DNA from: Alphaproteobacteria bacterium
Lineage (GTDB): Bacteria > Pseudomonadota > Alphaproteobacteria > Bin95
NCBI GenBank assembly: GCA_964291285.2
Contig: OZ219788.1
Coordinates: 315,136 to 379,135 of the forward strand
Reading direction: 5' to 3'
DNA: 64,000 nucleotides
Shown: positions 13,625 through 45,069 of the stretch, piece by piece
Layout of the letters: every line of letters starts with the position of its first letter
Numbering within the stretch: the first letter of the stretch is position 1
Notes under the pieces: model-generated
Told to the model about the DNA's origin: nothing
Database searches by the model: none
The model's input: the letters and a program-made list of their open reading frames with translations, nothing else
Program-made: the position numbers and the translations under genes

Positions 13625-16762
<3,138 letters not shown>

Positions 16763-18928: not shown

Positions 18929-20544
18929 GCAATCTCTCCGACAATCTGTTCAGCATCCCGAAGTCGGACTTCGCCGGACATCAGTTTGGGAAGCAGCCCG
19001 TGTAGAATGCCGACGAGAGAATGACTTTGCCGGGAAGCCGCACTTGCTCGAGCGATAGGCGGACGAACCAGATTTCCGAACGCGACGGCGACTTGCTCTG
19101 TCGGGCACGCAAGTGGGAATTTTTGCAAGGCTTGGGCCTGCACCCGCTGGCGACCGCTTGTACCGGTCATGTTCTGAATGGCAAATTCGCGGAAACGAAA
19201 ACTTCGGGCGAGACAATATGCGAATTCATACGGAAGCGGAGACTTGGGGCGCAAGACAATGTACTCTGTGGATCCCCAACCTACCTCGCCTTCCTGCAAG
19301 AAATCGACATAGGCCGTCTTTCCGTTCTCTAGGCATGGCGTGATACGAGCCATAAGTGTATCGCCGTTCATGAACTTTGTCCCCGAGCCAAAGGGACGAG
19401 CAGAGATGGTATCAGGTATATGTCCCTTGGCTGGCATGTTCGCCATATCGAGGTACGGAGCGGTTTGCCCCTTGGGCAAACGCCGCAGGGGATTGACTGA
19501 GATCAGATCGTCGAGCGGGCTCACTTCCCACCCCTCCGGTATCTCGCCGATTTCGGAATTGGCGAAGCGGTCGGGAAACAGTTTCCATATTTCGGGAGGC
19601 AGATAGGGCGCACGCCCTTCCATCTTCGCCCGGACCGGCCCGAAATCGACGAACCAGTCCTTGAAGATCGCCCGCGCCATCGCCTCCAGCGTCCCGTTCA
19701 TGCGCCGGTTCAACGCGATCTTGTCGTCCAGCGCGCCGAGGATGCCCGCAATCGCCCGCTGCTCGGGAAGGGGTGGTAAATCGATGTTCAGATTCTTGAT
19801 ATCCGAGGGCCTTATTGACGGATAAGCCGAAGTACTGTGTTCGGCAATGGTATGAAGCTGGTTGATAATTCGTTCCTGAACAAGAAACCAATAGATGAAA
19901 CCAGTGTCAGCAATGTCTTCACGCGCACGAAACACCGCAAAGCCAGTAGATGCGAGAAAATTCTCTGGAACATCCCGTAGCAACCCGAAGTGCCTCTGAT
20001 TGGGCCGGACGGTTGAGAATACGATGTCGCCCGGTTCAATTTTGCGACGCGCACGGTCAGGCAGCTTGTCTTTGTTCAGCTTCAGGCATTGAATCCTCTC
20101 TATTCGGTTATCTGTGATGCTGCCTGTATCAAGGTAATTGACAAATGGCCAATCTTCCTTCGGGGAATATGTTGCTTCATTCATTACGGTGCATTCGCCA
20201 AGTCGTATCCTGTGCCAATGATTGGCAGGAACTAGCGGTTTGGCCAGTACCACATGGTCTCGCTCAATTTGCTTCCGGAAGGAGCCCGGCACGTCATCCC
20301 AGACGAACAGGTCCACCCGGAATGGGAGACTGCTTTCCTCCAACGCTTCCCGGAGGTCGGAAACGGCGCGCTTCTGTTCGGGCGTCGCGAACACCACCAT
20401 ATCGATGTCGGATTGGGGGCGAGAGGTCCAACTGACCCGGGAACCGTAAGCCCAAGCCTTGGTGTCCGGGAGATGGCGTTCGAGCAACGCCAGAATATCT
20501 TTGCGTTGCCCGGCGGTGATGTCGATGGAGAAGTTTATTCCCAT
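18925..20544 (-). CDS. hsdS: fusion protein (539 aa): N-terminal minimal nucleotidyltransferase (MNT) domain joined to a type I restriction specificity subunit HsdS
   Basis: aa 1-~105 carry the MNT signature AYGSRVSWTSRPQSDIDMVV. The rest is a two-TRD HsdS with conserved LPPLPEQRAIAGILGALDDKIALNRRMNGTLEAMARAIFKDWF and a C-terminal LLPKLMSGEVRL. It is one continuous frame with no internal stop. Confidence 0.8.
   Translation of the reverse strand: MGINFSIDITAGQRKDILALLERHLPDTKAWAYGSRVSWTSRPQSDIDMVVFATPEQKRAVSDLREALEESSLPFRVDLFVWDDVPGSFRKQIERDHVVLAKPLVPANHWHRIRLGECTVMNEATYSPKEDWPFVNYLDTGSITDNRIERIQCLKLNKDKLPDRARRKIEPGDIVFSTVRPNQRHFGLLRDVPENFLASTGFAVFRAREDIADTGFIYWFLVQERIINQLHTIAEHSTSAYPSIRPSDIKNLNIDLPPLPEQRAIAGILGALDDKIALNRRMNGTLEAMARAIFKDWFVDFGPVRAKMEGRAPYLPPEIWKLFPDRFANSEIGEIPEGWEVSPLDDLISVNPLRRLPKGQTAPYLDMANMPAKGHIPDTISARPFGSGTKFMNGDTLMARITPCLENGKTAYVDFLQEGEVGWGSTEYIVLRPKSPLPYEFAYCLARSFRFREFAIQNMTGTSGRQRVQAQALQKFPLACPTEQVAVAFGNLVRPPIARASAASRQSHSLVGILHGLLPKLMSGEVRLRDAEQIVGEIA

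Positions 20545-21221: not shown

Positions 21222-21225
<4 letters not shown>
20974..21225 (-). CDS. small hypothetical protein (83 aa)
   Basis: The start overlaps the hsdM stop (ATGA at 21222-21225), which suggests translational coupling. Acidic, protein-like sequence with no recognisable domain. Confidence 0.4.
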
Positions 21226-22826
<1,601 letters not shown>

Positions 22827-23044: not shown

Positions 23045-26000
23045 TCATTGTGTGGCGATTCCGTACAATTTTTGAAACCGGAGGTCGCCAGAAATTCCGC
23101 AATTCCCGGCGCACAGAGCGTCAAGCAATTTCTTGAGACCGGGCTTGTTATAGTCCGGCAGAACATCGATTACCTTATTCAGCACCTTGAGCAATGGCTC
23201 CGGATGCTGTTTCGCGCAGCCATTCCTGTTGAGAACGAAGAAGCTATGCCCGACGCCGCCGCTGCCTTCCACGGGCCGCAAATATGTCAGCCACCATTCC
23301 GCCGCCTGAGGAAATGCATCGCCGCACTCCGCAAGCATCTTCAGTATCGCTTCCGAGATCTTCGCAGTATTGCGGCCCTGCTCTCGCGGCCAGTAGCTGC
23401 AAAGCCAGCGGTGCAATTTCTCGTCCCAGATCCGCTGCCGTTCGTCAGGTGTCCCGGTGAGGCGCCGCCTCAGGCTCCCAAGCACAGTCACCAGCCCTTG
23501 TTCGGGCATGGGGGCGACAACGTCGCGAATCTCTTTCTCAGTCAGATCTCCCGGCGCATCAAGGCAGACCGCCATGAACAGGTCTCTCAGTCGGCGCATT
23601 CTCCGGTCTTCAAGCCTGTCGTCGTGCAGGATTTCGAGAAACGGCGCCCTGATGGCTTTCAGGAGGTCCGGACCCAGACCTGGCGACCAGCTGTATGCAG
23701 ACCATAGGTCGACAGCTTCCTGTGACTTCAGGCAGGCGAGGCGCGCGATCAGGTGCTGCCGGGTCCACTCAGCGTCGACCGCAAACAGCGGGCGCAATCT
23801 GGTCGCCAGAAGCACGCGGCCTGGATGCCCGAGCGGGTCTTCGGCCATGGCGTCGAAATACGGCCGGACCGGTGGAGGGAATCCCGCTCCGGCTGGCAGT
23901 TCGTATTTCGACAGCCGGGTCAATGCCGCTTCCGCCAGCTTTCCGGCCGGATGGTTCAAGGCGTTCGTCAGGGTTTCATTCTGGTCGGCCATCTCCGATT
24001 CGCCCTCGCCCTTTCCGACCCAGGATTTCATCCAAAGGACACCGAATTCAGCTTCCCGATCGGTTTCCCATGCGTCCGCAAGCTGTTTCACGAAGCCCGC
24101 GACGGCGGACGCTACCTCGCCGAACAGCTCGCCGGGAGCCTCGGCAAGGATTCTTGCCGCACAGGCGTGCAGTTCCGCCGGCCGCTTTGGTTCCGGCAGC
24201 TCCCAGAGGAAATCCCGCCAGTACCCTGCAGGCCATTTGCCCTGTTTTCCGAGCTGTCGCAGCGCGGAAAAAACCTCTGCCGGTTTCCGGGCAGCCAGCC
24301 CTCGCAGTCCGTCCTGAACGATTTCCCCGGTATCGAGCGCCACCACGATGTCTTCGACCGATCCCTTGAGGAGATGCTTGGGCGCATAATCTTCGATGCC
24401 GATTCGTTCATACTTTACCTCGCCAAAAAATTCATCGATCTCTCCCTCGATTTCCTCCATTTTCTGGGTTATTGTTTCAGCCATCGCTCTTGATTTCTTG
24501 TCCAGCTTTATCCCGGACATGCCCAGCATGTGCAGGAACAATGCCTGTTCTTTGCGCAACCCTTCGTCACTGCCGAAGGATTCCCGGATTTTATTCGATT
24601 TCGGTCCAGCGTGAATTGCGTCAATGATGTCGCTGCGGAGATCTCGGGGTAACCGCTTGCCCGCCAATCTCAGAAAACGCATCGTTTCGCGCCGCATATC
24701 GAAGTCCCAGAGACCGAGGTTTCGACCTCCCAGAAGCAATTTCTGGGCAAGCCGAATATCGGCTCTCGGGTTTTCGGTCAGCGCGTGCAGCGCCAGCCTC
24801 CCGAACAGCGGCTCTTCGGAGTCCGCCCAGCGAAGGAGAAGATTGTACGCGCGTCGGCTCTCGTCGGGAACCAGCGCAAGATAACTGTCCCGCGCCAGAT
24901 CGATGAGGCGGGTCCAGTTGTCGAAATCGTTGTTTTGCTCGTGAGGCGCGATCGACGGCCGATACAGGTACGACCGCTGGTAGACATTGCCATCGGCCTT
25001 ACCCAGGGAAAGGGCGTGTTCGAGATGATCGGTCAGCGTCTCGGCGTGTCTCGAAAGCACTTCCCGGTCATCGAGAATAGCCTTGAATAGCGCCCAAACC
25101 CTGTCGCATGCCGACATCAATTCGAGATGTCCGCATGTATCGATGGGCTGCGGCGCTTGCGGGGTATTCTCGTAATTCAGCCGTACTTGCCGGACCATGG
25201 AAAGACCCGGTCGGACGACGAGACGCGGCCGGATACTCTCCATGACCTTGTCCTCGATGAGCCTGCGTTCGTCGGGGGACATCGCGGCCCGATGACGGTC
25301 GGAAAGCCAGAGCCCGTTCCAGGGATCATCGGGCCTGCTGCCCAGAAGAACGGTCCAGAGCAGTCGCAGCCTGTCGGGAATGTCCGGAAGCGCGGAAGCC
25401 CGCTCAGTCAGACGGCTCTCGACCTGCTGGCGAAGAAGAGGGTGGAGATGAGCGCCGTTCCGAAGCGCCCAGGCCAGCAGTTGCGGCACATGCAGATGGT
25501 TGGCCAGCCAAACCGAGAGATGGTGCCTTGTCCTATCCAGATTGTAGGGATTCACCGATTCGAGACCGGTATCTACGAGATGCCGGTCCGTCCCGTTAGC
25601 GGCAGAGCGCAGCAGACCCTTTTCCGCGAACATGTCGAGCCACTTCTCGAACTTTGCATGGTCCTCCTCGTTCGACATGGGAGGGGCTTCGGCAAGCGCC
25701 TGTGCGGCCGATGCGTCCTGTAGCGCCCAGACGACCCGTTCCACAACCGGCCCGGCCGGCATCTTGTTAATCTCGTCGATGGCGATCCGGGAACGGGCTC
25801 GAAGGGGATCGCTTCGGATCCGCGCCCATTCAATCAGTGTGTCTGCGAGAAGGCGGTGTCCGTCCCGCTCGTCATAGAGGATCGGTTCGACATTCTTCGC
25901 GACCCAGGCGTCACGCGCCCTGGATATCCCGGCTTCGGAACCATCCATGGCGGCGAATGCCCAAGCCATTCCGAAGCCCGCGCCCTTTGACCGCTCGGCG

Positions 26001-26701
26001 GCAAGGGCGTCGACCATGTACCCCATGACAGGATCGTCGAGGCTGTAGCCGACGAAGACGACCGAGAATTCGCGAAACAGTTCGGTGACGAACCTCGCCG
26101 CCCAGCGCTCGGTCAGATATGCGCGCCCGAAATCTGCCGCGGTCAGCACCAGGTTCGAGCCATCTTCCTTCGGTGCGATGCGGCCGTGCAGATGCACCAG
26201 GCTCGACCAGGCATGAGGCTTGGGTATCGGAAGCCGGGGCGCGGCATCGACCGTCAGGGATTCTTCCGCCGCTTCGGCAAAGCGGTTGTCGAAATTGGTG
26301 GTAACAAGTCGGACGCCGCTGTCGAAATTGGTGGTAACAGGTCGGACGCCGCGTTCAGTCCGCGACAGCTTGAGCAATGCCTTGTGGAGTTTCAGGTCAC
26401 CGCTTCGCGGTCGAGAAAGCCGGTCGATGACCGCACCCCGCAAGTGGTTCGCGCCCAGGCGGCGTTCCAGAAGCCCGAGCGCCCTGTCCCAGGCCCCGCT
26501 ACATAGCGCTTGCCGTTCGGCGGGATCGGGTTCGATGTGGTTGGCATCATATACATGTTTCACGAGGGCTTTGAAGCTCGGCAGGTCAGACCCTTCTGCC
26601 ATCGAGACCCCGGCGCCGCAGAAGAAAACGACATTGCCGTCGTCCAGCCCGTTCAGGAGGGGCGCCGGAATGTCCGGGCCGTCTTCAATCAGTTCAGGCA
26701 T
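23045..26701 (-). CDS. giant SIR2-like (SIR2_2-type) domain protein, 1218 aa, with a ~950-aa helical C-terminal region of unknown function
   Basis: N-terminal VVFFCGAGVSMAEG...VTTNFD...LVHLHGR...VFVGYSLDDP is the prokaryotic defence-type sirtuin pattern. It is co-directional with, and 218 bp upstream of, hsdM. Confidence 0.8.
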   Translation of the reverse strand: MPELIEDGPDIPAPLLNGLDDGNVVFFCGAGVSMAEGSDLPSFKALVKHVYDANHIEPDPAERQALCSGAWDRALGLLERRLGANHLRGAVIDRLSRPRSGDLKLHKALLKLSRTERGVRPVTTNFDSGVRLVTTNFDNRFAEAAEESLTVDAAPRLPIPKPHAWSSLVHLHGRIAPKEDGSNLVLTAADFGRAYLTERWAARFVTELFREFSVVFVGYSLDDPVMGYMVDALAAERSKGAGFGMAWAFAAMDGSEAGISRARDAWVAKNVEPILYDERDGHRLLADTLIEWARIRSDPLRARSRIAIDEINKMPAGPVVERVVWALQDASAAQALAEAPPMSNEEDHAKFEKWLDMFAEKGLLRSAANGTDRHLVDTGLESVNPYNLDRTRHHLSVWLANHLHVPQLLAWALRNGAHLHPLLRQQVESRLTERASALPDIPDRLRLLWTVLLGSRPDDPWNGLWLSDRHRAAMSPDERRLIEDKVMESIRPRLVVRPGLSMVRQVRLNYENTPQAPQPIDTCGHLELMSACDRVWALFKAILDDREVLSRHAETLTDHLEHALSLGKADGNVYQRSYLYRPSIAPHEQNNDFDNWTRLIDLARDSYLALVPDESRRAYNLLLRWADSEEPLFGRLALHALTENPRADIRLAQKLLLGGRNLGLWDFDMRRETMRFLRLAGKRLPRDLRSDIIDAIHAGPKSNKIRESFGSDEGLRKEQALFLHMLGMSGIKLDKKSRAMAETITQKMEEIEGEIDEFFGEVKYERIGIEDYAPKHLLKGSVEDIVVALDTGEIVQDGLRGLAARKPAEVFSALRQLGKQGKWPAGYWRDFLWELPEPKRPAELHACAARILAEAPGELFGEVASAVAGFVKQLADAWETDREAEFGVLWMKSWVGKGEGESEMADQNETLTNALNHPAGKLAEAALTRLSKYELPAGAGFPPPVRPYFDAMAEDPLGHPGRVLLATRLRPLFAVDAEWTRQHLIARLACLKSQEAVDLWSAYSWSPGLGPDLLKAIRAPFLEILHDDRLEDRRMRRLRDLFMAVCLDAPGDLTEKEIRDVVAPMPEQGLVTVLGSLRRRLTGTPDERQRIWDEKLHRWLCSYWPREQGRNTAKISEAILKMLAECGDAFPQAAEWWLTYLRPVEGSGGVGHSFFVLNRNGCAKQHPEPLLKVLNKVIDVLPDYNKPGLKKLLDALCAGNCGISGDLRFQKLYGIATQ
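26288..26353. repeat. 33-bp in-frame tandem duplication (2 copies, 2 mismatches) inside the SIR2 core
   Basis: GTCGAAATTGGTGGTAACAAGTCGGACGCCGCT is followed by GTCGAAATTGGTGGTAACAGGTCGGACGCCGCG. On the coding strand these give GVRPVTTNFDS and GVRLVTTNFDN. Confidence 0.9.
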
Positions 26702-27125: not shown

Positions 27126-30100
27126 ATGGTGGCGACGGTCTTCAACCTGACCTCGGCTTCCTCGACGGTGCACTATTTCCGGCGCGAGGGGCACGGGCTC
27201 GGGCCGAACCTGCCGGCGAACGACGACGAGGCGGGCGACTACTACGCGCGCAAGGATGACGAGCACCGCAAGGCGAGCCGGTGGCGGGGCAGCGGGGCGG
27301 CGGCGCTGGGGCTGACGGGCCATGTCGAGCCGGTGGAGTTCCGGCGTGTGCTGCAGGGATACGTTCCCGGCACGGACATCCGGCTGGGGCGGCTGCGCGA
27401 CGGCGAACACGAGCACCGCCCGGGTGTGGACATCACGTTTTCGGCGCCGAAGTCGGTGTCGCTCGAGGCGCTGCTCGGCGGTGCGGGTTCGGCCAGGGCG
27501 ATGCGGGCGCACGATGCGGCGGTGCGGGCGACGCTGGACTACATCGAGACACGGCTCTTGCGAACCCGGCGCTGGAGCCGCGAGGAGCGGCGCTCGGTGC
27601 AGGTGAATGCGCCCATGCTGGTGGCGGCGACCTTCCGGCATATCACGAGCCGCAACAACGACCCGCAGCTTCACACCCATTGCGTGGTCGCGAACATGAC
27701 GCGCGACGGCGGGCAGTGGCGGAGTGCGGAGACCGGTCTGCTGCGCCGGTCGGAGAAGCTGGTCGGGGCCTTCTACCGCAACGAGCTGGCGCACCGTCTG
27801 CGCCGTGAGGGTTTCGCGCTGCGTCCGTCGATGATCGGGCGGGTTCCGGGGTTCGAGATCTCGGGCTGGCCGCGTGCGGTGCTGGAGGCGTTCTCGAGCC
27901 GGCGGCAACAGATACTGGCCTACATCCGGGAGAAGGGCTGGCGCTACGATGCGCACACCGCGCAGGCGGCGACGCTGGCGACGCGGGCGCGCAAGAACGA
28001 GCCGCGCCGGGCGGAGCTTGAGGCGCTGTGGCGGGCGTTTGCCGAGGAAAATGGCCTCGCCAGGCGGACGCTGCGGAAGATCGGGGTGCGGCATGCGGCG
28101 CCGCCGACGGCGCTGGAGATCGCCTGGCGGGCTCTTGAGCAGCTGGAGGAGCGGGCGAGCGTCTTCCCGGCGCGGGACGCGCTGGCGCTGGCGCTGGCGC
28201 TGGCGCATTCGCCCGGCCTCTACCGGCTTGAGGAGATCGAGGGGGCCTTTGCGGAGCTTCGACGGGACAAGCATTTGCTGCCGGCGATCCGGCGCGGGGC
28301 GGGCGAGGCCTGGACGACGGCGCGGGCGGTCAACGCCGAACGCGAGGTGCGCGAGCGCACGATCGCCAATATCGGTGCTGTCAGGGCGCTCTCCGAAGCT
28401 CCCGTCCCCGGAGAGGCGCTGGAGGGCCTGACCGGGGGCCAGCGCGAGGCGGTGCGGCTGATCCTGGAGAGCCGGGACCGGGCGGTCGGGGTGCAGGGCC
28501 ATGCGGGCACCGGCAAGACGGTGATGCTGCGCCGGGCCGTGTCGTGCATGGGAGAAAGGCGGGTGCTGGGACTGGCGCCGTCGGCCTCGGCGGCGCGGAC
28601 GCTGTCGCGCGAAACGGGCCTCGCCTGCCGGACGCTGCAATGGTTCCTGACGCGCTGCCAGGAGGTGTCCGACGGGGTGGCGGACGCAAGGACGCTCGCC
28701 GCGCTGAGAGAGCGCCATGGCGGCGCGGTGGTGGTGGTGGTGGACGAGATGTCGCTGGCGGGCACGGCGCAGGCGCGCGCGCTGCTGCGGATTGCCGAGC
28801 GCCTCGACATTGCCCGGCTTGTGCTTGTGGGCGACAGCCGGCAGCTGCGGGGCGTGCAGGCGGGCCAGCCCTTCCGGCAGATGCAGCAGGCGGGCTTGGG
28901 CGTCGCGGAGATGGACGAGGTTCGCCGGCAGCAGGACCCGGACCTGCTGGCCGCCGTCCAGGACATGATCGAGGGCGAGCCGGGCGCGGCGCTGGAGCGT
29001 CTCGGAGGCAACCTGCGGGAACTGCCGGCGGAGGAGATCGCGGGCATGGCGGCCGCGCTCTGGCTGCGGCTTTCGCCCGGGGCGCGGGCGGGTACGGCGT
29101 TGCTGGTTCCGACGCGCGCGCTCAGGGCCGAGGTCGAGGAGGCGGTGCGCGAAGGCCTCGAAGCCGAGGGCGCCCTGCACGGGTCCTCCATCGGGATCGA
29201 GACGCTCGTGCCCCTCAACCTCACGCGCGCGGAGACGGGGTCGTGCGGCTGATACCGAGCTTCTCCCACGGCCCCTCAACCTCACGCGCGCGGAGACGGG
29301 CGACGTGCGCAACTGGCGCGAGGGCGACATCGCGCTCTTCAACCGCGAGCGGAAGAACTACCGCATCCGCAAGGACGACGCCTGCACGGTGATGGAGGTG
29401 GAGGAGGACCGGGTGATCCTCGCCCATCCCGATGGCCGGCCGCGCCACCTGAAGCCCGGCGGCGACCTGCGCTACCGGCTGGACCTGTTCGAGGCGAAGA
29501 CGCTGCGGATCAGGGAGGGCGAGCAACTGCGCTGGACGCGCAACGACAGGGAGCGCGGCCTCGTCAACGGCGACCGTGTGGAGGTGGCCGCCATGGGAAC
29601 CGGAGCGCTCCGCATGCGCCTCTCCGACGGGCGGGAGATGCGATTCGCGCGCGACGACCCGCAGCTTCGTCATCTTGCATACGCCTATGCGTCCACCGTG
29701 CATGCGGCGCAGGGGCAGACGCACGACCGTGTGGTCGCGGTGCTGGACACAGGCGCGGGGCCGCTGGTGAACCAGCAGACGCTCTACGTGCAGCTCAGCC
29801 GCGCGCGGGAAGAGGCGCTGGTGCTGACCGACAACCGCGAGCAGCTTGTGGAGACGCTGGAGGCGAACACGGGCGAGCGGCTGACGGCGCTGGAAGCCAT
29901 CGGCGAGACGGAGACGATGAAGGCGCCGGCGAAGCGGACGGTCTCCGGGGAGGCGGCGTCTGCGTTCCTTGACGGCCTGCGCGCGGAGCGGGAGCGCCGC
30001 GCCGAAGCGGAGGCGGCCTTGCGCCGGCTGGCGGAGGCCGAAGCAGCGCTTGCCGCAGCCCGCGCCCATGCGCAGGAAGCCGGATACACCTTCGCCGCCC

Positions 30101-31434
30101 TGCCGGCGGTCGATCCGGACGACGGACAGACCCTTCAGGACCGTCTCGCGGCGGCCAAAATTGTGCAGGAAGCGGCGCATGATGTCTCGGCTGCCGCCCA
30201 TGCGGTGCTGGAGGCGGCGAAGGCGGCGGACCGCGTCCCGCCGCTCGACGATGCCGCGATGGAGGCGGCGAAGACCGGCGAAACCGAGGCAGCGGCGCGC
30301 CTTGTGGCATACCGGTCGCTGGAGACGGCCTTGACGGCGGCGAACAGGGCGTCCGGACGGCTGGCGCCCGCAGGCGCGCTCCGCGACAAGGATATCGACG
30401 GGGCTTCGATGCAGCGCCATGGCGCCGCCGCCCGGGAGGCGGCCGCCGCCTTCGACGCCCTCGCGCAAAAGGCGCGGGCAGCGGGCGAGGCGGCGCTGGC
30501 CCGGCGCGCGCGGGAGAGGGCTTCGGACCTCGGGCTGGCGGCGCTGCACTGGAGCTACAGGCTGGCGGGCCACCGGTTCGCGGTGGCGCGGCTGGCCGAG
30601 CGGGACATGGCGCCGCCGCACACGGTCGGGGACGTGCGGCGCTGGCAGGACCTGCGCCAGCGCCAGGCGGACGCGCGGACCGGGGCGGCAGCCGCGGCCG
30701 AGGCGGTCGCGCCGGAGAGCGCGGACGCGGCGGCCCGGTGGCGTGAACAGGCGGCGGACTACCGCAAGCAGGCCGGCGCGATACGCGGCTCGCTGGCGGA
30801 ACTGGAGGGGCTGAAGACGCTGGTGCGGACCGCGGAAGCCGCGTCGGACGACGCGGCGGCATGGAGCGCGGCGGCGGGCGCGGCGGAGACGATCCGGAAA
30901 GGCTCCGGCCGGGGTCTGGAGGACGAGGCCGCGCGCGTGCGTGACGAGGAGGCGCGCCGCCGACAGGAAGGGCGCGAGGCGGCGCGGGCACGTTTCGAGA
31001 CCCTGAGCTCGGAATGGGACGCGTTCGAGAGGAAGGTCAGGGCCGGGGGGCGGGTCGGCTTTGCGGACAAGCGCAGCCGGCAATATGTCGACCGCGCGCG
31101 GCGGCTGGAGGCGGACCCCGATCTCGATGCGGAAGCGAAGGAGACGCTCGCGGCGTTCCTGCACGAGCACGATGTCGTGCGCCCGAAGGTCGTCCGGCGC
31201 TGCCGGGAGCTGTTCGCGCAGTGGAACGCGGTCCGCGCAACGGCAAGGGCCCGCGGCGTCGGCCGGTTCATCCCTCCGGAGAGCGCGGAGGTCGTTGCGG
31301 GGATGCGCAAGCTCGCCGCCGGGAGCCCGGAGCACCTGACGCGCAGACAGAAGGAGACATTCGAGACGATCACCGAGGAATACGCCCTCCATGTCGAGCG
31401 GCAGCGGACATGGGTGATGACCATGAGGCCGTGA
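27126..31434 (+). pseudogene. MobF-family conjugative relaxase / helicase (TrwC/TraA-like), disrupted by a 61-bp insertion
   Basis: Relaxase motifs (DYYARKDDEH; HITSRNNDPQLHTHCVVANM) and a RecD-like helicase Walker A (VQGHAGTGKTVM). The frame breaks at 29240-29271. Removing 61 nt gives 4248 nt = 1416 codons. Confidence 0.85.
29210..29300. repeat. 30-bp perfect direct repeat (29210-29239 and 29271-29300) flanking a 31-bp unrelated spacer inside the relaxase gene
   Basis: GCCCCTCAACCTCACGCGCGCGGAGACGGG occurs twice, 61 bp apart. Both copies encode PLNLTRAETG in the respective frames. Confidence 0.9.
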
Positions 31435-35782: not shown

Positions 35783-35972
35783 TGTCAATCGGCGTTCAAA
35801 GTTGACCCCGGATCGGCGCGGAAGATTGACCCCTCTGTAGGTTGTCCCGGTAGTCAACAGGAGGGCCCCGCGCGGCTCCGCGTAGCGCCCTGCGATACGT
35901 GGAGCGGAGCCGCGCGGGAGGTGCCTGTTGACCCACCGGGGCAACCGGGCCGCCGGCCTGGGCGTCGCCGGG

Positions 35973-36701
35973 TCACGATCGATGTTTGAAGCGCCAGCTC
36001 TCGTTGCCGGTTTCGACAATGTCGCAATGATGGGTCAGGCGGTCGAGGAGCGCGGTGGTCATCTTGGGATCGCCGAACACGGAGGGCCATTCGCCGAAGG
36101 CGAGGTTTGTGGTGATGATGATCGAGGTGCGCTCGTAGAGCCGGCTCATCAGGTGGAAGAGCAGCTGTCCTCCGGCCTGGGCGAAGGGGAGGTATCCGAG
36201 TTCGTCGAGGACGACGAAGTCGCGCCGGGCGAGCTGCTGGGCGGTACGACCCTGGCGCCCGGCGCGATGCTCGGCCTCAAGCAGATTGACCAGGTCGACG
36301 GTGTTGTAGCAGCGCCCGCGGCAGCCCTGCCGGATGCAGGCGCGCACGATGGCGACGGCAAGATGCGTTTTGCCGCTGCCGGTTCCGCCGACCAGGACGA
36401 GATTGCGCTTTCCTTCCAGGAAGGCGCCGGTGACCAGTTCCTGGATCAGGGCCTCGTTGACCGGGGAGGCCGCGAAGTCGAAGTCGGCCAGTTCCTTGGC
36501 CATCGGCAGCCTGGCGCTTGCCATCTGGTATTTGATCGAGCGCGCCGTCTTGTCGGCGATCTCGGCCTGCAGCAGCGCGGCGATGATCTTCGGCGCCGGG
36601 TGGCGGCGCTTGATGGCGTCGGCGAGGATATCGTCCCAGGCGGCGCGCATGCCCGACAGCTTGAGGGCGGTCATCATCGCCAACACGTCATGACGCTCCA
36701 T
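35973..36701 (-). CDS. istB: IS21-family helper ATPase IstB
   Basis: Walker [14 protein letters not shown] and ...[11 protein letters not shown].... Confidence 0.9.
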
Positions 36702-38202
36702 GGCCGGCCTCCCTCAGACGGTCGTAGCGGTGGCAGTCGGCCACTGGCTGATGGCGAAGCTGCAAGCCCTCGGGCGTCGGGATGGGCGGAACCGGCGCCG
36801 GCTGGCGATGCCGGGCGAGGATGTTGAGCACGACGTCGGCGCTGCAGGCGCCATTGGCGAGCGCCTCGGCGCAGGCGGCTTCGACCGCCTCAAGTCCGTC
36901 CTCCAGAACCGCTGTAAGGATCCGGACGATCTGGCGGTCGCCATCGTCATGGCCGGACAGCCGGGCTCGCAGCCGACCGAGGGCATCGGGCAACGGCCAG
37001 TCCTTGAAGGGCGCGCCGTTGCGCAGCGCGCCGGGCTTGCGTGCCAGGATCGGCACGTAGTGCCACGGATCGCAGGTGACCGTGCCGCGCGCGAAGCTCC
37101 GGGGGTGCTCGGCAACCGTCTCGCCGTCCTGGCGGATGACGATCCGGTTGGCGTAGGCCCGCACGTCGACCGGCCGGCCGACGGCGCGGGCGGCAACGCT
37201 GTAGTGGTTGTTGTCGAAGCGCACCAGGCAGGTCTTCGAGACCGCCGACTCAACCGCGTGGAAGCCGTCGAACGGACCGCAATACCCCACCAGGAACGGC
37301 TGCTCCTCCTCGAACACCTCCCACACCGTCTTGCCCGCGATCGACGGATGCGCGCGGCGCTTGGCGTCCCGGATGCAGGCGTCCATGAGCCATGCGTTCA
37401 GCTCATCATGGGAGCGGCCCCGCAGGCGCGGCACGAACAGGCGGCTGCGGGCGTAGCCCACCTGGTTCTCTACCTGGCCCTTCTCCCATGCCGCCCCGGG
37501 GGTGCAGGCCACAGGCTCTACCAGGTGATGGGAGCACATCTCCAGGAAGCGACGGTTGTAGGCGCGCTCCTTGCCGATGAAGATCGCGCTCACCGCCGTC
37601 TTCATATTGTCGTAGATCCCCCGGCGGCACGACCCGCCGAAGAGCCGGAACGCCCGCTCGTGCGCCTCGAACACCATCTCCTGGCCTTCGCGCGGGAAGA
37701 CCTGCACCAGCATCATGCGGCTGTGGCAAAGGCGCATGTGCGCCGCCTTCACCCGGGTCGTCACGCCCGACAGAACCGCGTATTCGTGGCTCCAGTCGAA
37801 CTGGTAGGCCTCGCCGGGGGCAAAGCTCAGCGGCACGAACGCCTGCGAAGCCGACAAGGCACGGCGCTCGCGGCGCCAGACGCCGGCATAGCGACGAACG
37901 GCGTCATAACCGCCGGCATAGCCCAACGCCGCCAGCTCCTCATACATCCGCATCAGCGACAGGCGATCCCGGCGAGCCTTCTTCTCGTTCGCCTCCAGAT
38001 AGCCGTCCAGAACCTCGATCCACGGACCCGGCTTTGGACGCGACTGAACCTTCCGCCCGTAGCTGAACGACGTCTCTCCGCTCCGGACCGCCTTGCGGAC
38101 CGTGTTCCGGGATACCTTCAGCTCCCGGACAAGCTTCTTGATCGGGACCCCCTTGCCCAGATGCTCTCGACGGATACGCGCGATCGTCTCCACAACCAAC
38201 AT
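36688..38202 (-). CDS. istA: IS21-family transposase IstA (504 aa)
   Basis: HTH N-terminus ([19 protein letters not shown]) and a DDE core (YQFDWSHE...MLVQVFPRE...YDNMKTAV). Confidence 0.9.
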
Positions 38203-38556
38203 CTCCCACCTCCTCGTCCATCAAGAAAACGAGGCGGCTTCAAAGGACACAGCCCTCGGGGGGTCAATTTTGGAAGCCGATCACCCCCGAACGGGGGTCA
38301 ATATTCCACGCCGAATTACACACAGTGCAGCCGTCGACTGGATGCTCTCGGCCATCCGTCCCCATGAGTGCTCGATTCTGCTTGCCGGCTGCGGGGTCAC
38401 GGTCGAGGATCTGGCCCGACATGCCCGGACTCACCACTACCAGCGCCGTCTCTTGTGCGCTACCTCAACCAATTCGTCTTTCCCCCGCTGTAGCCTCCAC
38501 GCCCTGAAGGGGATGGGGCGTGCCGCGCCAAAGCTGCTCGAGAGAGAGGCCACGAA

Positions 38557-38730
38557 ATGACGGACATCGACAGGAACCGGCCGGAGGCGCCCGCCGAAGC
38601 GGAGCCGAAAGAGGAGACGAGCCGGGCATCGACGGCGCGGCGCGAGGCAACATCCGATGCGATGATGCAGGCCATCGAGGACGACATAGACCGGCGCTCG
38701 GGCGTCTATCGGCACCTGGCGGCTTCCTGA
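38557..38730 (+). CDS. small hypothetical protein (57 aa), below the ORF-track cut-off
   Basis: SD GAGAGAGAGG lies 7 nt upstream. My translation is MTDIDRNRPEAPAEAEPKEETSRASTARREATSDAMMQAIEDDIDRRSGVYRHLAAS*. Confidence 0.35.
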   Translation: MTDIDRNRPEAPAEAEPKEETSRASTARREATSDAMMQAIEDDIDRRSGVYRHLAAS

Positions 38731-38901
38731 CAGCCCGGAGGCGCTGCGATGGCCCCTGACCTCCACTGGTCGCATGATCCCGCGGGTATGAAGCTCCCGG
38801 TGCACCGGCCGTCTCCCCCCGGGATCCCGTAGATCCCGGGAGAAGAAAAGACCCTGCGTGAGCGCATGCGTCTGCGAATCGCGCCGGTCTGGGGGCGGCC
38901 G

Positions 38902-41900
38902 TTAGAGCGCTGTCCACGCATTGCGGACCTCTACGAATTCACTGGAGTCGCTACAGATCGCCCGCCAGCGCCTGATCGATCCCGGCTCCTCCTTCCCCAA
39001 CGCGCTGTAGCGCTCAGCCAACGCCGATGCCAGGGCCGCGGCCGAGGCCCGGGTCGGGATCAGTTCGTCCCCATCGTTACCCCTGACGCGGTTCTGATCG
39101 GTTTCTTCGGAGATATGACCGAGGCCTGCCAGCAGACCGCATTCTCTCTCCCTGGGCAGGAACCAGGGCAGCCTCCTGACCAGGCTCCCCGTATAGCGCA
39201 GCCTCGCGGCAAGCGCTGGACGGTGGCGCCACCAGATACCATCGGCAAGCGTCGTCTCCACTGCGGAAAATGTCTCGCGCCTGTCCTCCGGCAGCGTATG
39301 CGCCGCCAGAAGTTCCGTCGCAGACAGCGCATCGACTATCACGCCGCGCTCGGTGTCAGACAACGCGGCCTTCACTCGCCCGATCACCCGTTCCAGCATT
39401 TCGGGCACGACCTTCAAGGCCGCCGCTTCGAGCCTCAATGCAGGGATGCCGTCTCCCTCTAGGTCCGCAAGGAACGTCCGTAGCGCATCTGCCAGATTGT
39501 CGTTGTCGACTGCTGCGGGGACGCGGGCAAATACGGCTGAAAGGGCGTCAACGCCTCCAGAAATTACCTTATGAGTGTGTTCAGCAACTGAACCGACAAA
39601 CGGATCCGGCTGGGAGTCATGCGTCCCGTGCTTGTTGCTCCGCCACCAGTTCGAGGCTTCCGCAAGCAGCTCCTTCGCCTCCGGACGGGTCCATTTGACC
39701 CAAAACGCCGAGTTGCGTAGCTCGTTCATGGAGTTGTCCGGGACGGTGCGTCCCCAATGTGGAATTTTCGACCTCAAGCGCTGCTTCACGAGCGGCTCAG
39801 GGTCGATGTCGGCGGGGTGAGGCAATCTCAGACACATGAAGTCGGGGTATCCAGGCACCACCGGCACTTCCGGCGCTTCCACGCCGTCCCACACCAAGTT
39901 CCCGAGGCGTTTGGACTGTTCTTCGTCCAGCTGGTCTTTCTCGTGCAGCCAGACAAGCGGCGCTGCCGCCCAGTCCCGCTCGGCCTTGGAGGTGCTGCAC
40001 GACATCCGATCTAGCAATTCGTCGACCTTGCCGGGCTGTATGCCGAGTGCTCCTGGCCGAACCGGTTCAGGCAGATTCACCAACAATACCGGGTGAACGT
40101 GTTCCCCAACCGGAATCCCTCCGCCAGGCCCCATCGGTAACGGCTGCGGGAGCCCGATCAACGTCGGCGCTGCCCGCGCCAGCTCCACTGCCGACATGCT
40201 TTCGAGAAGACGATGAACAAACCGGGGGATGTTGAACACCAGCCTCCATCTGAGCGGCAGGCCGTAGATCCGACCGAGCATTTCCACCAGGCACTCTCGG
40301 TATTCTGGTGAGCACTTGCAGCAGAGGCGCGAAAACACCTCCGGGAGCGTACGCGCGAGCGGCTCGAGAATTCCGTCGCCGGACGGAGCCGTTCCTTCGA
40401 ACATGGACACTATGCGGTCCAGCGCCTTTAGGTAAGCGTCGCAATGCCTATCGACTTCGGTTTGCGTCAGGCCAGCGAGATACTCACGGTCGAACAGGCT
40501 GTCTGCGGCTCTCTCGCTGCCCAGGCGGGCGATGGCCACCAATGCCCAGTGCGGCGACTGCATGCCCATGCGACGCACTGCGCCCTCGAGCCACCTGCCA
40601 ACGAACGTTGTGTATCCAATGCGGTAGGGCATGCCGAGGTCTTCGTACATCCGCAGCAGCCTGTAGGCCGAAAGCGCCTCTTCATCGGGGCCGAAGCGGT
40701 AGTTTCTGAATACAAGGCCGGTATCGAAATCAGGGGTCTCTACCCTCGTGCTCCAAGGAGGAGTCGGCGGAGCAGACCGGACATGCGCGGACAACAATTC
40801 CACCTCGCGATGCGGCGCGCAGTTGTATCGGACCAGCTCGTTCTGCCGCTCCGTCAGGTCCCGCAGGTCGATGCCGCTGGGTTGCTCCGAATCCTCTTCC
40901 ACCGTCAGCAGGCCGGAGTCGAGCATCTGGTAATGAAGCATTACCACTGACTCCTGCGAGACGAGCGTGTAGTCGTCGGCGCCCCGGTTCTGGCGCTGCT
41001 GTCGACGGATGGTCGCAAGGCTCGATTCAAGAGCCGGGCGGGCGTCCTTATCCCCCTGCAACTCTGCCAGCAGGACGGTGCGGTTTGCGTCCAGGAAGGG
41101 CGTGGCATCGTTGTCTGGCCACTCGTCGGCCAGCAGCTGCCTGGCTTCCTCCGGGTCGAAACGGAACAGCGCCTGCAACGCTGTCTCAAGCCGGAACCGG
41201 GCCCTGTATTCGAGCGTTATGGCGTTGAGGTTGAGGCTTGCCTCGAGCCTCCTCCTTACCGCCTCCCATTCGTCATGCAGGCCCTGCTCACGATAGTGCC
41301 GCATCAGCCATAGCCGGACTTCGAAGACGGCGGCGACTACACAGGTTGTCTCCCTGCCAACCTCTTCCAGAAACTCCGCCGAAGCGTTGCCGTATTTGTG
41401 CTCAACCTCTTCCAGAAACGACGACAGGTCGCCCACCGTCGGCACCCTGAGCGGCATAAGGCACCGGTCTAGGCGCCACGCCAGCTCGAACGCCAGGTCC
41501 AGGTCTAGGCCCGGCTCCAGCGCTTGTCGTTCCGCTCCCGACAATCCGGACAGATGCGACAGCCAGTTTTCGGTGTGGAGCCAAAGTTGCAGTCGCCCTT
41601 CTGCCGGCGCCACCACCCAGCCCGGGTAGTCGAGGCGTTGTCGGCGCCATTCCTCCACGACTTCGCCGTACCTGTGGGGATCGCTCTGCCGTAACCAAGG
41701 CTGCTCTTCCGGCGACACCCTTGGCCATTCCGAGACCCGCGGCTTGCGCTCCTCAAGTTCCTTCAGGAGCCAGTTCAACGCTTCTTCTTCGCGTTTTTCG
41801 TGGCCCGGCGCGATCCACGACAGGTCGATCGGGACAATGCCCCGGTCGCAGAGCAGCTGGTTGTCTGCCTCACCAAGGCGACCGAGTGCGACAAGATAAA

Positions 41901-42585
41901 TCCCGAGCGCGTCCTTCCTCCCGATATGGTCGCGCATCCAGCCGAGCCATTGCAGGAAGTTCGGGTCGTCCGCCGAAAAGCCGACTAGGCATAGCTTGTT
42001 CTCAAGCAGGGCCTGGCGAACCGTGTTTACAAACGGATCGTGGTCGAGAGGATATCGGCGATAGTCCTCCTCGGTGATGATGAACGGCCCCTCCGGGAAG
42101 CTGCCGTGCAGCTTGACGATCCTCGCCCCCTCCGCATCCGGGATTTCCTTCTCCGTGGTGACGACGGTGTAATGCTTGAGCGGTACGGCCGGCAACGCCC
42201 GCTCCAGGAGCGTGTCGTAGTTCGTCGTGAACACATCCTTCCAGGGCAAGCCCAGCAACCGGCTATGTAACAGCGATGGCGGATGCCGGTCGGGGATGGC
42301 CTGACGGAGCAGGTCGTCCAGGGCAGGTCGCCCGAACATGGCCTGGACCTGCCCGGCCAATTTGAGAATGTCCAGATACCTGGCGTCATCTCCCGGAGAA
42401 CATCCGTGAATTCTTTCGTAGAACCGGTCCCCCAGCTTCTGCCAGATCGGGAATTCCGAACTCGCATTCAGGCTGAACCCCGCGCCGACCATCACGGCAG
42501 CCTTGTTCGCCCACAACCGGGCTGCGAGATCGTCGAGACAGCATTTCACATGGGCAGGGGCCTCGTCGGACATTGCCAGCCTCAT
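38902..42585 (-). CDS. second giant SIR2-like (SIR2_2-type) protein, 1227 aa (probably 1223 aa from ATG 42573), stand-alone
   Basis: AAVMVGAGFSLNAS...VFTTNYDTLLE...IVKLHGS...LCLVGFSADDPNF is followed by ~950 aa of helical sequence. GAGG lies 6 nt upstream of ATG 42573. Confidence 0.8.
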   Translation of the reverse strand: MRLAMSDEAPAHVKCCLDDLAARLWANKAAVMVGAGFSLNASSEFPIWQKLGDRFYERIHGCSPGDDARYLDILKLAGQVQAMFGRPALDDLLRQAIPDRHPPSLLHSRLLGLPWKDVFTTNYDTLLERALPAVPLKHYTVVTTEKEIPDAEGARIVKLHGSFPEGPFIITEEDYRRYPLDHDPFVNTVRQALLENKLCLVGFSADDPNFLQWLGWMRDHIGRKDALGIYLVALGRLGEADNQLLCDRGIVPIDLSWIAPGHEKREEEALNWLLKELEERKPRVSEWPRVSPEEQPWLRQSDPHRYGEVVEEWRRQRLDYPGWVVAPAEGRLQLWLHTENWLSHLSGLSGAERQALEPGLDLDLAFELAWRLDRCLMPLRVPTVGDLSSFLEEVEHKYGNASAEFLEEVGRETTCVVAAVFEVRLWLMRHYREQGLHDEWEAVRRRLEASLNLNAITLEYRARFRLETALQALFRFDPEEARQLLADEWPDNDATPFLDANRTVLLAELQGDKDARPALESSLATIRRQQRQNRGADDYTLVSQESVVMLHYQMLDSGLLTVEEDSEQPSGIDLRDLTERQNELVRYNCAPHREVELLSAHVRSAPPTPPWSTRVETPDFDTGLVFRNYRFGPDEEALSAYRLLRMYEDLGMPYRIGYTTFVGRWLEGAVRRMGMQSPHWALVAIARLGSERAADSLFDREYLAGLTQTEVDRHCDAYLKALDRIVSMFEGTAPSGDGILEPLARTLPEVFSRLCCKCSPEYRECLVEMLGRIYGLPLRWRLVFNIPRFVHRLLESMSAVELARAAPTLIGLPQPLPMGPGGGIPVGEHVHPVLLVNLPEPVRPGALGIQPGKVDELLDRMSCSTSKAERDWAAAPLVWLHEKDQLDEEQSKRLGNLVWDGVEAPEVPVVPGYPDFMCLRLPHPADIDPEPLVKQRLRSKIPHWGRTVPDNSMNELRNSAFWVKWTRPEAKELLAEASNWWRSNKHGTHDSQPDPFVGSVAEHTHKVISGGVDALSAVFARVPAAVDNDNLADALRTFLADLEGDGIPALRLEAAALKVVPEMLERVIGRVKAALSDTERGVIVDALSATELLAAHTLPEDRRETFSAVETTLADGIWWRHRPALAARLRYTGSLVRRLPWFLPRERECGLLAGLGHISEETDQNRVRGNDGDELIPTRASAAALASALAERYSALGKEEPGSIRRWRAICSDSSEFVEVRNAWTAL

Positions 42586-42951
42586 CCATCGAAGCGAATG
42601 GCCAACCCTAGTCCCGTTCTCTCCACAGCGCTACGCCGGCCTTCAGCGGCATCCTTCGGCCGCATTGTCGTAATCGGGATGAGCCTGAATTTTTTGTTGC
42701 CCCACTTCCAGTCTGAAGTGCAACATCCGGCCCTCATCGCAGTGAGGGGCGTAGCCCGAACGGAGATGAGGTCCAGATGTTACACAAATTTTCCCCCTCT
42801 GTCCCTCTCGATTCCGCCCGGGAACAGCTTCAGTTCCTTCAACATCGAGCTTATGCAACGCCTTTGTCGGCTTCAAGCCACTGTTTCGCCGTCGCGCGGC
42901 ATGGACCCTGCTGCACGTTGCGGCTTCGGAACGCAGATGGTCAGGGCGGTT

Positions 42952-43648
42952 TCACTTCAAGATTACCTCCGTCGGCGATCCCGGGACTTTCCGAGTGTTG
43001 AGCCGATCCTGTACCTTCTGAACATCTTCGTTGCATGTCGCGCGAAAGTCCGTGCCCTTCGGGAAGTACTCCCGCACCAGGCCGTTGGTGTGCTCATTCA
43101 AGCCGCGCTCCCGGGAATGGAAAGGCGAAGAAGAAATCTGCGTCAAGTGCGACACGGCTGTGGTCTGCGAACTCCTTGCCGTTGTGATTGTGTGGACCAA
43201 TAGCGCACCAGAGCCGAGCAGGCGGATCATGACCGAACCGACCGTGTCTTTCTGTCCACCCGGCCGGAATGGCATCCGCCCTTCCAGTTCGGCTTCTTGC
43301 CGCGCCGCCGAAGCTTCTTCCACAAGACGCCCCCGGCTCTCCGGTCTTCGGCGATCATGGATCCGTTCACGGCCCTCCAGTCGAAAACGGCCGCTGCTCG
43401 GAACCCTCCCGCAGCTTTTCCTGAGCTTCAACCCGAGGCGTCAACCGCCAGGAAACAGACGAGGCTGCCCTGCGTTTCTGCCATCCTTTGCGCCTGCTTG
43501 TGACGGTAACCCCGTCCCCCGGTGTTGCGCTTGATCTCCCGGAAAATTCGGTCACGGCCCGGCTGCCGAGCAATCGTACCTTGTGAAAGACCGCTTTTCT
43601 GCCTCAATCTGGCATCGCTCTTCGCAGGTGACGGTAGCCTTTGGACAT
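42952..43648 (-). pseudogene. IS30-family transposase remnant with several frameshifts and internal deletions
   Basis: The N-terminus MSKGYRHL..CEERCQIEA...IARQPGRDRIFREIKRNTGGRGYRHKQAQ and the C-terminus ...ERGLNEHTNGLVREYFPKGTDF...LNTR lie in different frames. Only ~700 bp remain. Confidence 0.65.
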
Positions 43649-44668
43649 GAACAAGCCCCCTTCATCTTGTACAGGAACTCTCGCCACTACCGCTCCGCAA
43701 CATCATGCGTCTAAAAACACATGGCCACAGCCCATCATGTGTTGCACTTCACTATGGAACAGGGGTTGTATCCCTGATCGGCGAGCTGATTTTTTTGGGT
43801 TCTTTTTGGTCGCTTGGGGAAGCGCTGACGATAGTTGTCTGGTGGTTTCCGCTGCCCCGGGCGGGTCTGGAGCGTTTGATGATCGGGCCGGGTGCAATTT
43901 TTGGGGGCTCGGGGGGGCGCCGGTCGTTGCCACCAAGCAGACGGGGCCGGCGCCGCATCGTTCTCAGCAGCCCCAGTCTACCCCCTCGCGCAGCCCGGCG
44001 ACCCTCGCTGCGGTCGCCAGCACATCCCCTCCCTCAGGCAGGCGAAAATCTCAACGCAACGGGGGCCGGCGACTCCAGTCGGGCTACGCCCTCCTTACGT
44101 CCCTGGCCCCCGTCGCAAATGCCGCGGCGCCACCATCACAATCCTCGGCGCGCTCAACAAAAAAGCGCAACGCCAGCAAATAAGCGCCTTTTGTGACCGT
44201 CACCTACACGAGCATAGAATTCCGGTTCGATCGCGCCCATCCCGCTCTCCTCCAGGTCCCGGTCCTTTCCGGCGCCGCCCGCAGCGAACCGGCAACCGGC
44301 GCCACTCTGGAGGCCGCCCCCTGTCTTGCAAAGGAATCAGTCAGGGGATTTCCATCGCCCCGGACATGCGCGCCAGCCCGCGGACACGCCGGATGCGCGC
44401 ACCCCCGAAGTTCACGGCCGCCACACGATTGCCGCCCGGCGCATTCGGACCGGTGTCCGCGGATGTACGGCCGACCGCCGCTTGCCCGTCCGCTCGCCGA
44501 ACAACTCGACGGCGTTTCACGCGCGCGACGGGCGACGGACCGTTTACCGGCATGCGCGAGCCGGCAACGCCCCATTTCGGATCGGTCCGGTCTCGGACCG
44601 CTATCTGGAAAGAGGTTTGATTTTCAGGAGGGCTGGAAAAATCCGTAATATCAGCGTTTTATATACGA

Positions 44669-44710
44669 TTAGGAATATCCCGCAACATTGGTGTCCAGGA
44701 GATATTTCAC
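44669..44710 (-). pseudogene. vapC: vapC (PIN toxin) remnant: the first 9 codons are recognisable, with a stop after 13
   Basis: GTG lies 2 nt after the antitoxin stop. It reads VKYLLDTNV, the canonical VapC N-terminus, then AGYS*. The sequence changes to AT-rich unrelated DNA after ~44684. Confidence 0.6.
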
Positions 44711-44712
44711 GG

Positions 44713-44994
44713 CTACAGGCGCACGTCGCGGCCCGGCGTTCTCTCGCGCAGATCGCCGAACAGCTCGCCGGGGTCGAGGGCAAGTTCCTCAAGCCGGACT
44801 GCGCTTGCGAATTCGCGGCAGGCGTTCGCGAAGCCCTGCCGGCCCGAGGAGAGCCGCTCGAATTCCCGGCGGCCCACCAGAACGGCCACCGGCTCGCCCC
44901 GCCGGGTAAGCTCCACGGCCTTTCCGCTCTCCGCATCGCGCACCAAGGACGGCAGGTTGCGCCGCGCTTCCGCAATCGAATGCCGGTCCGCCAT
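44713..44994 (-). CDS. Phd/YefM-family type II antitoxin (93 aa)
   Basis: MADRHSIAEARRNLPSLVRDAESGKAVELTRRGEPVAVLVGRREFERL is the typical Phd/YefM N-terminal domain. Confidence 0.75.
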   Translation of the reverse strand: MADRHSIAEARRNLPSLVRDAESGKAVELTRRGEPVAVLVGRREFERLSSGRQGFANACREFASAVRLEELALDPGELFGDLRERTPGRDVRL

Positions 44995-45069
44995 TGTCTC
45001 CGCCGCAATGTTCATCGGTATGTACACAATAGACGGTTCCGCAGAAGAACGGAACCCCCGGCGGCCGGA

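Follow-up and report, generated by a model that had tools for sequence, protein, structure and literature searches.

Locus and gene product

A stretch of 64,000 nucleotides (the window) from contig OZ219788.1 of an Alphaproteobacteria bacterium (assembly GCA_964291285.2, positions 315,136 to 379,135 of the forward strand) contains, on its minus strand at 38902..42585, an open reading frame (ORF) of 1227 aa whose product is very probably, on its own, an intact anti-phage defence system of the Dsr2 family. A preliminary description of this DNA had reported here a SIR2-domain protein with the motifs GAGFS, TTNYD, KLHGS, and VGFSADDP and a long helical tail. The ORF listing of the window and the translation, which has all four motifs, bear this out, as does a Pfam SIR2_2 domain (PF13289) at aa 118-253 (E 8.6e-21), and the remainder of the protein beyond SIR2 is predicted to be almost wholly helical. 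Two parts can be delimited: a predicted N-terminal SIR2 NADase domain (about aa 16-253; 41827..42540, minus strand), which was located by Pfam, phmmer, and Foldseek and carries the residues S38, N122, D124, and H160, and a predicted all-helical sensor tail of the HEAT/ARM-type alpha-solenoid kind (aa 290-1227; 38905..41718, minus strand), which is based on AlphaFold2 (AF2), Foldseek, and profile comparisons.

Translation probably begins at M5, the second ATG (42573), which gives a Dsr2-family gene at 38902..42573 (minus strand) and a protein of 1223 aa. This start is favoured because GAGG lies 6 nt upstream of the 42573 ATG, because the consensus of 29 homologues opens at the same Met, and because a near-identical protein in the databases (P0001) has 1223 aa. 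Residue numbers given here follow the 1227-aa ORF.

Assignment to the Dsr2 family

The family assignment is carried by full-length, colinear matches to both curated Dsr2 profiles. The PADLOC profile PDLC02184 matches aa 6-1225 of the protein over positions 2-1220 of 1222 (E 2.9e-276), and the NCBIfam model NF041819, "anti-phage defense-associated sirtuin Dsr2", matches aa 11-1224 over positions 2-1215 of 1215 (E 7.4e-284). With profiles of 1215 and 1222 positions, the curated family is of the same length class as the protein described here, and it shares with it the N-terminal SIR2 domain, the single-gene organisation, and the defence-island context. According to Garb et al. (10.1101/2021.12.14.472415), DSR2 was first reported as a family by Gao et al. 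(2020); the length and identity of the originally tested DSR2 were taken from the profile lengths and from the statement in that paper. In RefSeq the name dsr2 is carried by a plasmid homologue of Clostridium tyrobutyricum, which is 33% identical to the protein. Its closest relatives, at 44-76% identity, come mostly from uncultured marine and sponge-associated bacteria. The protein is thus a further member of an already named family and has little weight as a discovery.

SIR2 domain

Among solved structures, the best phmmer match of the protein is the SIR2 domain of Bacillus subtilis DSR2 (BsDSR2), with E 3e-17 over aa 16-219. The GAGxS, TTNYD, and HG motifs of the two domains align, and in this alignment S38, N122, D124, and H160 correspond to S51, N133, D135, and H171 of BsDSR2, the residues named as catalytic in structural work on the Bacillus protein (PMC11850899). 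N133 and H171 are needed in BsDSR2 (Garb et al., 10.1101/2021.12.14.472415). All four residues are invariant in 29 homologues, and the S/N/D/H catalytic set of the Dsr2 SIR2 domain is intact in the protein. Its structural model also resembles SIR2-only DSR2 chains in Foldseek comparisons (TM score 0.74-0.77).

Profile searches place a second kind of defence NADase at a similar distance. The SIR2 domain of ThsA, the effector of Thoeris, is about as similar to the protein by profile as that of BsDSR2 (7UXT, E 9e-19, family profile). A profile built from close relatives finds the Bacillus DSR2 SIR2 domain at E 5e-16; the listing of the broader family profile has no DSR2 chain, and ThsA-type SIR2 domains stay in it at E 4e-16. 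An identification as ThsA was nevertheless rejected, since the PADLOC ThsA profiles match the protein over the SIR2 part only (positions 10-213 of 478) and Pfam detects in it no SLOG domain, which is C-terminal in ThsA. Moreover, Thoeris requires ThsB, whereas the gene described here is adjoined by no separate partner gene and only by insertion sequence (IS) elements.

Sensor tail and comparison with Bacillus DSR2

The tail of about 940 aa is the variable part of the protein. Its conservation profile is most variable at about aa 805-885 and 1005-1165, and an alignment that includes sequences of as little as 27% identity shows the strongest conservation in the SIR2 domain (0.66-0.85) and the weakest in the C-terminal quarter (0.35-0.43). 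AlphaFold modelled aa 5-1200 with a predicted local distance difference test score (pLDDT) of 75 and a predicted TM score (pTM) of 0.65. An AF2 model of the tail by itself (aa 290-1227), for which the alignment was built from database proteins only, was better (pLDDT 81, pTM 0.78). For the full-length model, the 50 best matches listed from the PDB are all BsDSR2 chains (E ~1e-13, probability 1.0), and the alignments span both proteins. This E-value compares with ~1e-8 for the SIR2 domain alone, a gain that, judged from the models, would be no more than generic solenoid similarity. The best Foldseek matches of the tail-only model are the karyopherins CRM1, importin-beta, and transportins, together with CAND1 and SF3B1 (E 2.5e-6 to 7e-4), and the family profile matches armadillo-repeat proteins at profile positions ~1040-1190 with E-values down to 1.3e-6.

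The only mechanistically characterised DSR2 is the 1005-aa protein of B. subtilis 29R (PDB 8K98, 8WKS, 8WY8, and others). It depletes NAD+ upon recognising the SPR tail tube protein and is inhibited by DSAD1 (Garb et al., 10.1101/2021.12.14.472415); the activation by the tail tube protein and the inhibition by DSAD1 were also reported in structural work (PMC11087589). In cryo-EM the protein forms a tetramer, with SIR2 at the core, a middle domain (MID) that is helical, and a HEAT-like alpha-solenoid C-terminal domain (CTD) (PMC11087589, PMC11850899). BsDSR2 and the protein of the window agree in their effector domain, in the order of their domains, and in the fold class to which the sensor belongs, and both follow the plan of a SIR2 domain, a helical middle region, and a C-terminal HEAT/ARM-like solenoid. 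However, the tail of the latter is longer by about 240 residues.

Several results weigh against reading the gene as an intact system of the Dsr2 family. The NF041819 score of the protein, 945 bits, is below the NCBI equivalog cutoff of 1400 bits, and therefore the NCBI rule would name it only "SIR2 family protein", the name that its database relatives bear. In sequence and profile comparisons the match to BsDSR2 is confined to the SIR2 domain and does not extend beyond residue ~220, and the absence of BsDSR2 from the broader family profile listing points the same way, as does the lack of DSR2 chains among the top 50 PDB matches of the tail-only model. Finally, a scan upstream of the gene found no sigma-70-like promoter, although such a scan tells nothing about a high-GC alphaproteobacterium; its counts of sigma-70 promoters and of terminators were at chance level. 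As the score is under the cutoff, the protein is to be regarded as a diverged member or branch of Dsr2 and not as a close orthologue of the seeds.

Homology of the tail to the MID and CTD of BsDSR2 (residues 299-1005) was not found by sequence, profile, or structure comparison. Since the two tails are not detectably related, the trigger may differ from the tail tube protein, and since both are only generic HEAT/ARM-like solenoids, its identity is not inferable from BsDSR2. Tail-tube sensing and DSAD1 inhibition are therefore not transferable from BsDSR2 to the protein of the window. "SIR2 family proteins" on Bacillus and Priestia plasmids (1250-1290 aa), which match the protein up to residue ~800, were considered as a bridge to BsDSR2 and rejected; the one tested, from a Bacillus paramycoides plasmid, has PDB matches only through ThsA-type SIR2 domains. 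A protein database search with the 206-aa BsDSR2 SIR2 fragment returned only fragments of 113-352 aa and no full-length protein.

IS elements and a second copy of the gene

The gene lies between two IS elements of different families. Downstream of it is a complete IS21-family element of 2538 bp (35783..38320, minus strand), identified by its IstA and IstB profiles and its terminal repeats. IstA (36688-38202) matches NF033546 (E 1.8e-83) and IstB (35973-36701) matches PF01695 (E 1.8e-75); the terminal inverted repeats read TGTCAATCGGCG from 35783 and TGTAATTCGGCG inward from 38320, and tandem terminal repeats are found at 38259-38314. The element has no target-site duplication, as its flanks GCCGGA and CACAGT differ, which points to an IS-mediated rearrangement and not to a simple insertion. 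Upstream, 126 bp from the start of the gene, is a degenerate IS30-family element (42700..43765, minus strand), recognised by a transposase profile and bracketed by 26-nt imperfect inverted repeats (42700-42725 and 43740-43765). Of the transposase, only the C-terminal third survives in the ORF of this element (42952-43431; NF033563, E 3e-14, positions 174-264 of 267).

These data confirm the IS21 end at 38320 and the IS30 remnant at 42952 that the preliminary description had given as the limits of the segment, together with its remark that no partner gene lies on the same strand: between the two IS elements only Arg/Pro/Gly-rich ORFs without family hits occur. One of them (38465-38917, minus strand), which overlaps the 3' end of the gene, was considered as a partner and discarded; it is likewise Arg/Pro/Gly-rich and without family hits, and it is uncalled in the second copy of the locus described below. 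The phrase "solitary IS-flanked cargo" is apt as a description, but the locus is no composite transposon. That arrangement was rejected because the flanking elements belong to different families, IS30 is degenerate, and IS21 lacks a target-site duplication.

The gene is part of a larger unit. A 6.4-kb block (38321..44697), comprising the gene, the IS30 remnant, and about 0.9 kb more, recurs with 99.83% identity on chromosome 1 of an alphaproteobacterial metagenome-assembled genome (MAG; OZ219790.1, locus L001, 7878-14253). Both flanks of the block differ between the window and OZ219790.1, and its left breakpoint is exactly the IS21 end. On one side, the MAG has an operon containing AbiEii, which converges on the gene and is replaced by IS21 in the window, and IS66; on the other side, it has a second partial IS30-like copy (93% identity) and metabolic genes. 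The two copies of the block differ by 10 substitutions and one indel. Four of the substitutions are located within the coding sequence of the gene, and three of these are nonsynonymous and affect the tail (A500T, L778P, and P825S). Owing to these three residue changes, the protein and its database copy are 99.76% and not 100% identical. The MAG copy has T at position 500, where the 29 other proteins of the alignment all have A. Chromosome 2 of the same MAG (OZ219791.1; L028, the MAG being that of loci L001 and L002) encodes a 50%-identical paralogue of the Dsr2 family, and an HsdM-like gene is situated 2 kb downstream of this paralogue.

At the other end of the block, a gene for a Phd/YefM-type antitoxin (44713-45027, minus strand; PF02604, E 4e-11) has no recognisable toxin gene downstream, and the block boundary at 44697 is 16 nt past the stop codon of the antitoxin gene. 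When the block arrived, it may therefore have displaced the toxin gene. An exact 40-mer of the sirtuin gene had no match in JGI metagenome contigs, and a megablast search of the region against plasmids gave none either. The GC content at third codon positions (GC3) is 0.75 in the gene and 0.69 in the second giant sirtuin gene of the window, as opposed to 0.85-0.90 in neighbouring genes, which is consistent with horizontal acquisition of both; the gene at 38902..42573, of a base composition foreign to the host, was acquired by horizontal transfer. The gene is located in a region that is plastic and rich in IS elements, and the block is known from at least two genomic contexts. Caught in both at 99.8% identity, it illustrates the IS-driven shuffling of defence genes.

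Such a setting might suggest a gene that is in decay or silent, carried along as a passenger and left between the IS elements as an inactive relic. The region is rearranged, with an IS21 that lacks a target-site duplication, a degenerate IS30, and a truncated neighbouring operon; only ~126 bp of native upstream sequence are left before the IS30 repeat, of the four nucleotides at which the gene differs from the second copy three alter the protein, and several homologues in other genomes are truncated. However, the frame is unbroken over 1223 codons and colinear with the family profiles to the last residues. It keeps all family-invariant residues, including the catalytic four and the A500 that is lost in the other copy, and is preceded by a plausible ribosome-binding site. 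With a difference of only 0.17% between the two copies, the arrangement is recent. A relic is therefore improbable, and an intact Dsr2-family gene is the preferred reading.

Homologues and their neighbourhoods

More than 3400 database proteins match the protein at E <= 1e-5, and over 120 of these are full-length and 44-76% identical. The homologues occupy at least 514 loci in species-representative genomes of Proteobacteria, Cyanobacteria, Acidobacteria, Bacteroidota, Spirochaetes, Firmicutes, and other phyla. In 80 related loci, for which neighbours were counted, no universal neighbour of the Dsr2-family genes was found, and the most frequent family occurs in 14. Together with the situation in the window, this corresponds to a single-gene system without an obligate partner. 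The recurrent neighbours are subunits of type I restriction-modification (R-M) systems, with HsdM-, HsdS-, and HsdR-like proteins encoded in 14, 11, and 7 of the loci, respectively, and Dsr2-family members are often embedded in type I R-M operons. In several distant genomes (L078, L017, L020, L038, and L067) the Dsr2-family gene comes directly after hsdS in the same orientation, at a distance of -6 to +52 nt. The order in L078 (5007-14890), for example, is hsdM, hsdS, dsr2, and hsdR, and hsdS and dsr2 overlap by 4 nt. This slot after hsdS is the one that PrrC takes in prr loci. Dsr2-family reading frames are cut to 435-1029 aa in six further loci (L005, L045, L051, L065, L073, and L076), which reflects either pseudogenes or errors of assembly.

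That the protein is not an immune NADase but serves housekeeping or regulation, as a deacylase of proteins or an ADP-ribosyltransferase whose tail is a scaffold, is very unlikely: the SIR2 fold is common to deacetylases, and weak matches to "NAD-dependent protein deacetylase" chains do appear, but the domain is of the SIR2_2 type (PF13289) with the defence NADases DSR2, ThsA, and KomC as its best matches, the homologues reside inside type I R-M operons and defence islands, and the gene itself is compositionally foreign and IS-associated.

The second giant sirtuin and the defence island

The window contains a second giant sirtuin gene (23045..26701, minus strand), and the starts of the two genes are 15.9 kb apart. 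Its product of 1218 aa belongs to the Dsr1 family according to full-length matches to the Dsr1 profiles of PADLOC (PDLC04167, E 4e-169) and NCBIfam (NF041818, E 1e-204), whereas the protein at 38902..42573 matches no Dsr1 profile in either collection. An annotation of the PADLOC type would thus automatically label the two genes Dsr1 and Dsr2. By family, both are giant single-protein SIR2 NADase defence systems of similar length. Their likeness is restricted to the effector: BLASTP yields a single stretch of 79 residues in SIR2 (E 0.019), and hhalign aligns residues ~20-233 only (27% identity, probability 81%) and finds no alignment between the tails of ~950 aa, which are unrelated by profile comparison. 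According to a 2026 preprint, E. coli Dsr1 has as its sensor a TPR domain similar to that of Avs7, by which major capsid proteins of phages are recognised (PMC12803255). The sensors of Dsr1 and of the Dsr2-family protein are of different origin.

This comparison divides what the preliminary description had said about the pair. Two different giant sirtuins do occur within 16 kb, and their common architecture of a SIR2 N-terminus and a long helical tail stands, but only the SIR2 cores align beneath it. The suggested diversification of one sensor-effector family did not hold, as the proteins match Dsr2 and Dsr1 profiles, respectively, and have tails without alignment. Nor do they offer a natural paralogue pair for specificity mapping. 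The pairwise alignment and family assignment that had been proposed as a check place both proteins, at the family level, in named DSR families, the outcome that the preliminary description itself had set down as refuting its interpretation. A diverged paralogue that arose by recent diversification in the island, for which the length of ~1220 aa, the N-terminal SIR2 with a long helical tail, and the position of the genes 12 kb apart in one mobile island could be adduced, is largely refuted by the full-length matches to different curated families, by the alignments limited to the SIR2 core, and by the capsid-recognising, Avs7-like sensor lineage of Dsr1. The two sirtuins belong, as judged by these sequence comparisons, to two separately named families and form no diverging paralogue pair.

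The Dsr1 gene heads a type I R-M cluster. The wider window forms a mobile defence island, which reads on the minus strand Dsr1, hsdM, hsdS, PDC-M02B, and hsdR; adjacent to this cluster are a TrwC relaxase and then IS21, Dsr2, IS30, and an orphan Phd/YefM antitoxin. The cluster consists of hsdM (21222-22826), hsdS (18925-20544), and hsdR (13625-16762), all on the minus strand, and a candidate defence gene on the same strand (17286-18428) is placed between hsdS and hsdR. The 380-aa product of the latter is a full-length match to PADLOC PDC-M02B (E 2.6e-115) and has no Pfam domain. At its N-terminus, HsdS has a nucleotidyltransferase domain of the Pol-beta type (PF18765, E 8e-9). By eye, a PF18765-type domain is suggested also at the N-terminus of an HsdS-like protein that is encoded beside a Dsr2 homologue in an unrelated MAG (L025, 3802-5985). 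On the plus strand, a domain match identifies a TrwC relaxase with an AAA_30 domain (27126-29252), and after it comes an ORF (29305-31434) whose product has the helicase C-terminal domain UvrD_C. The region 27126-31434 may represent a single relaxase-helicase gene divided between two frames, or it may hold two separate genes. The TrwC relaxase supports the view of the Dsr1 region as a mobilisable element. Neither an Rfam scan nor a tRNA scan of the window gave a hit. The island thus packs two NAD+-depleting sensors (by family) of different lineages beside a type I R-M system and an embedded candidate defence gene.

Proposed mechanism and implications

The DSR2 family acts by NAD+ depletion and abortive infection (Garb et al., 10.1101/2021.12.14.472415). 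By analogy with this family, the Dsr2-family protein of the window would be an autoinhibited oligomer in the uninfected cell. Upon infection, a phage protein would bind the variable C-terminal HEAT/ARM-like repeats and free the SIR2 domain, which could then hydrolyse NAD+ and abort phage replication. Binding of a phage protein to the solenoid with subsequent release of the SIR2 NADase is a reasonable inference for this protein.

The comparison with BsDSR2 raises a further point that concerns the family as a whole. The sensor tail of the ~1220-aa proteins that are curated as "Dsr2", including the one described here, may have no homology to the tail of the 1005-aa Bacillus DSR2, and their lineage would then sense a trigger other than the tail tube protein. 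We consider this a tentative proposal, with somewhat less in its favour than against it. If it is true, the annotation "DSR2" would comprise at least two sensor lineages joined to similar SIR2 effectors, and the long Dsr2 proteins would sense through their variable C-terminal ARM-like repeats. In the island described here, the Dsr2-family protein would then complement the capsid-sensing Dsr1 encoded next door. Trigger assignments that are copied from Bacillus DSR2 onto long-Dsr2 annotations are unsafe.

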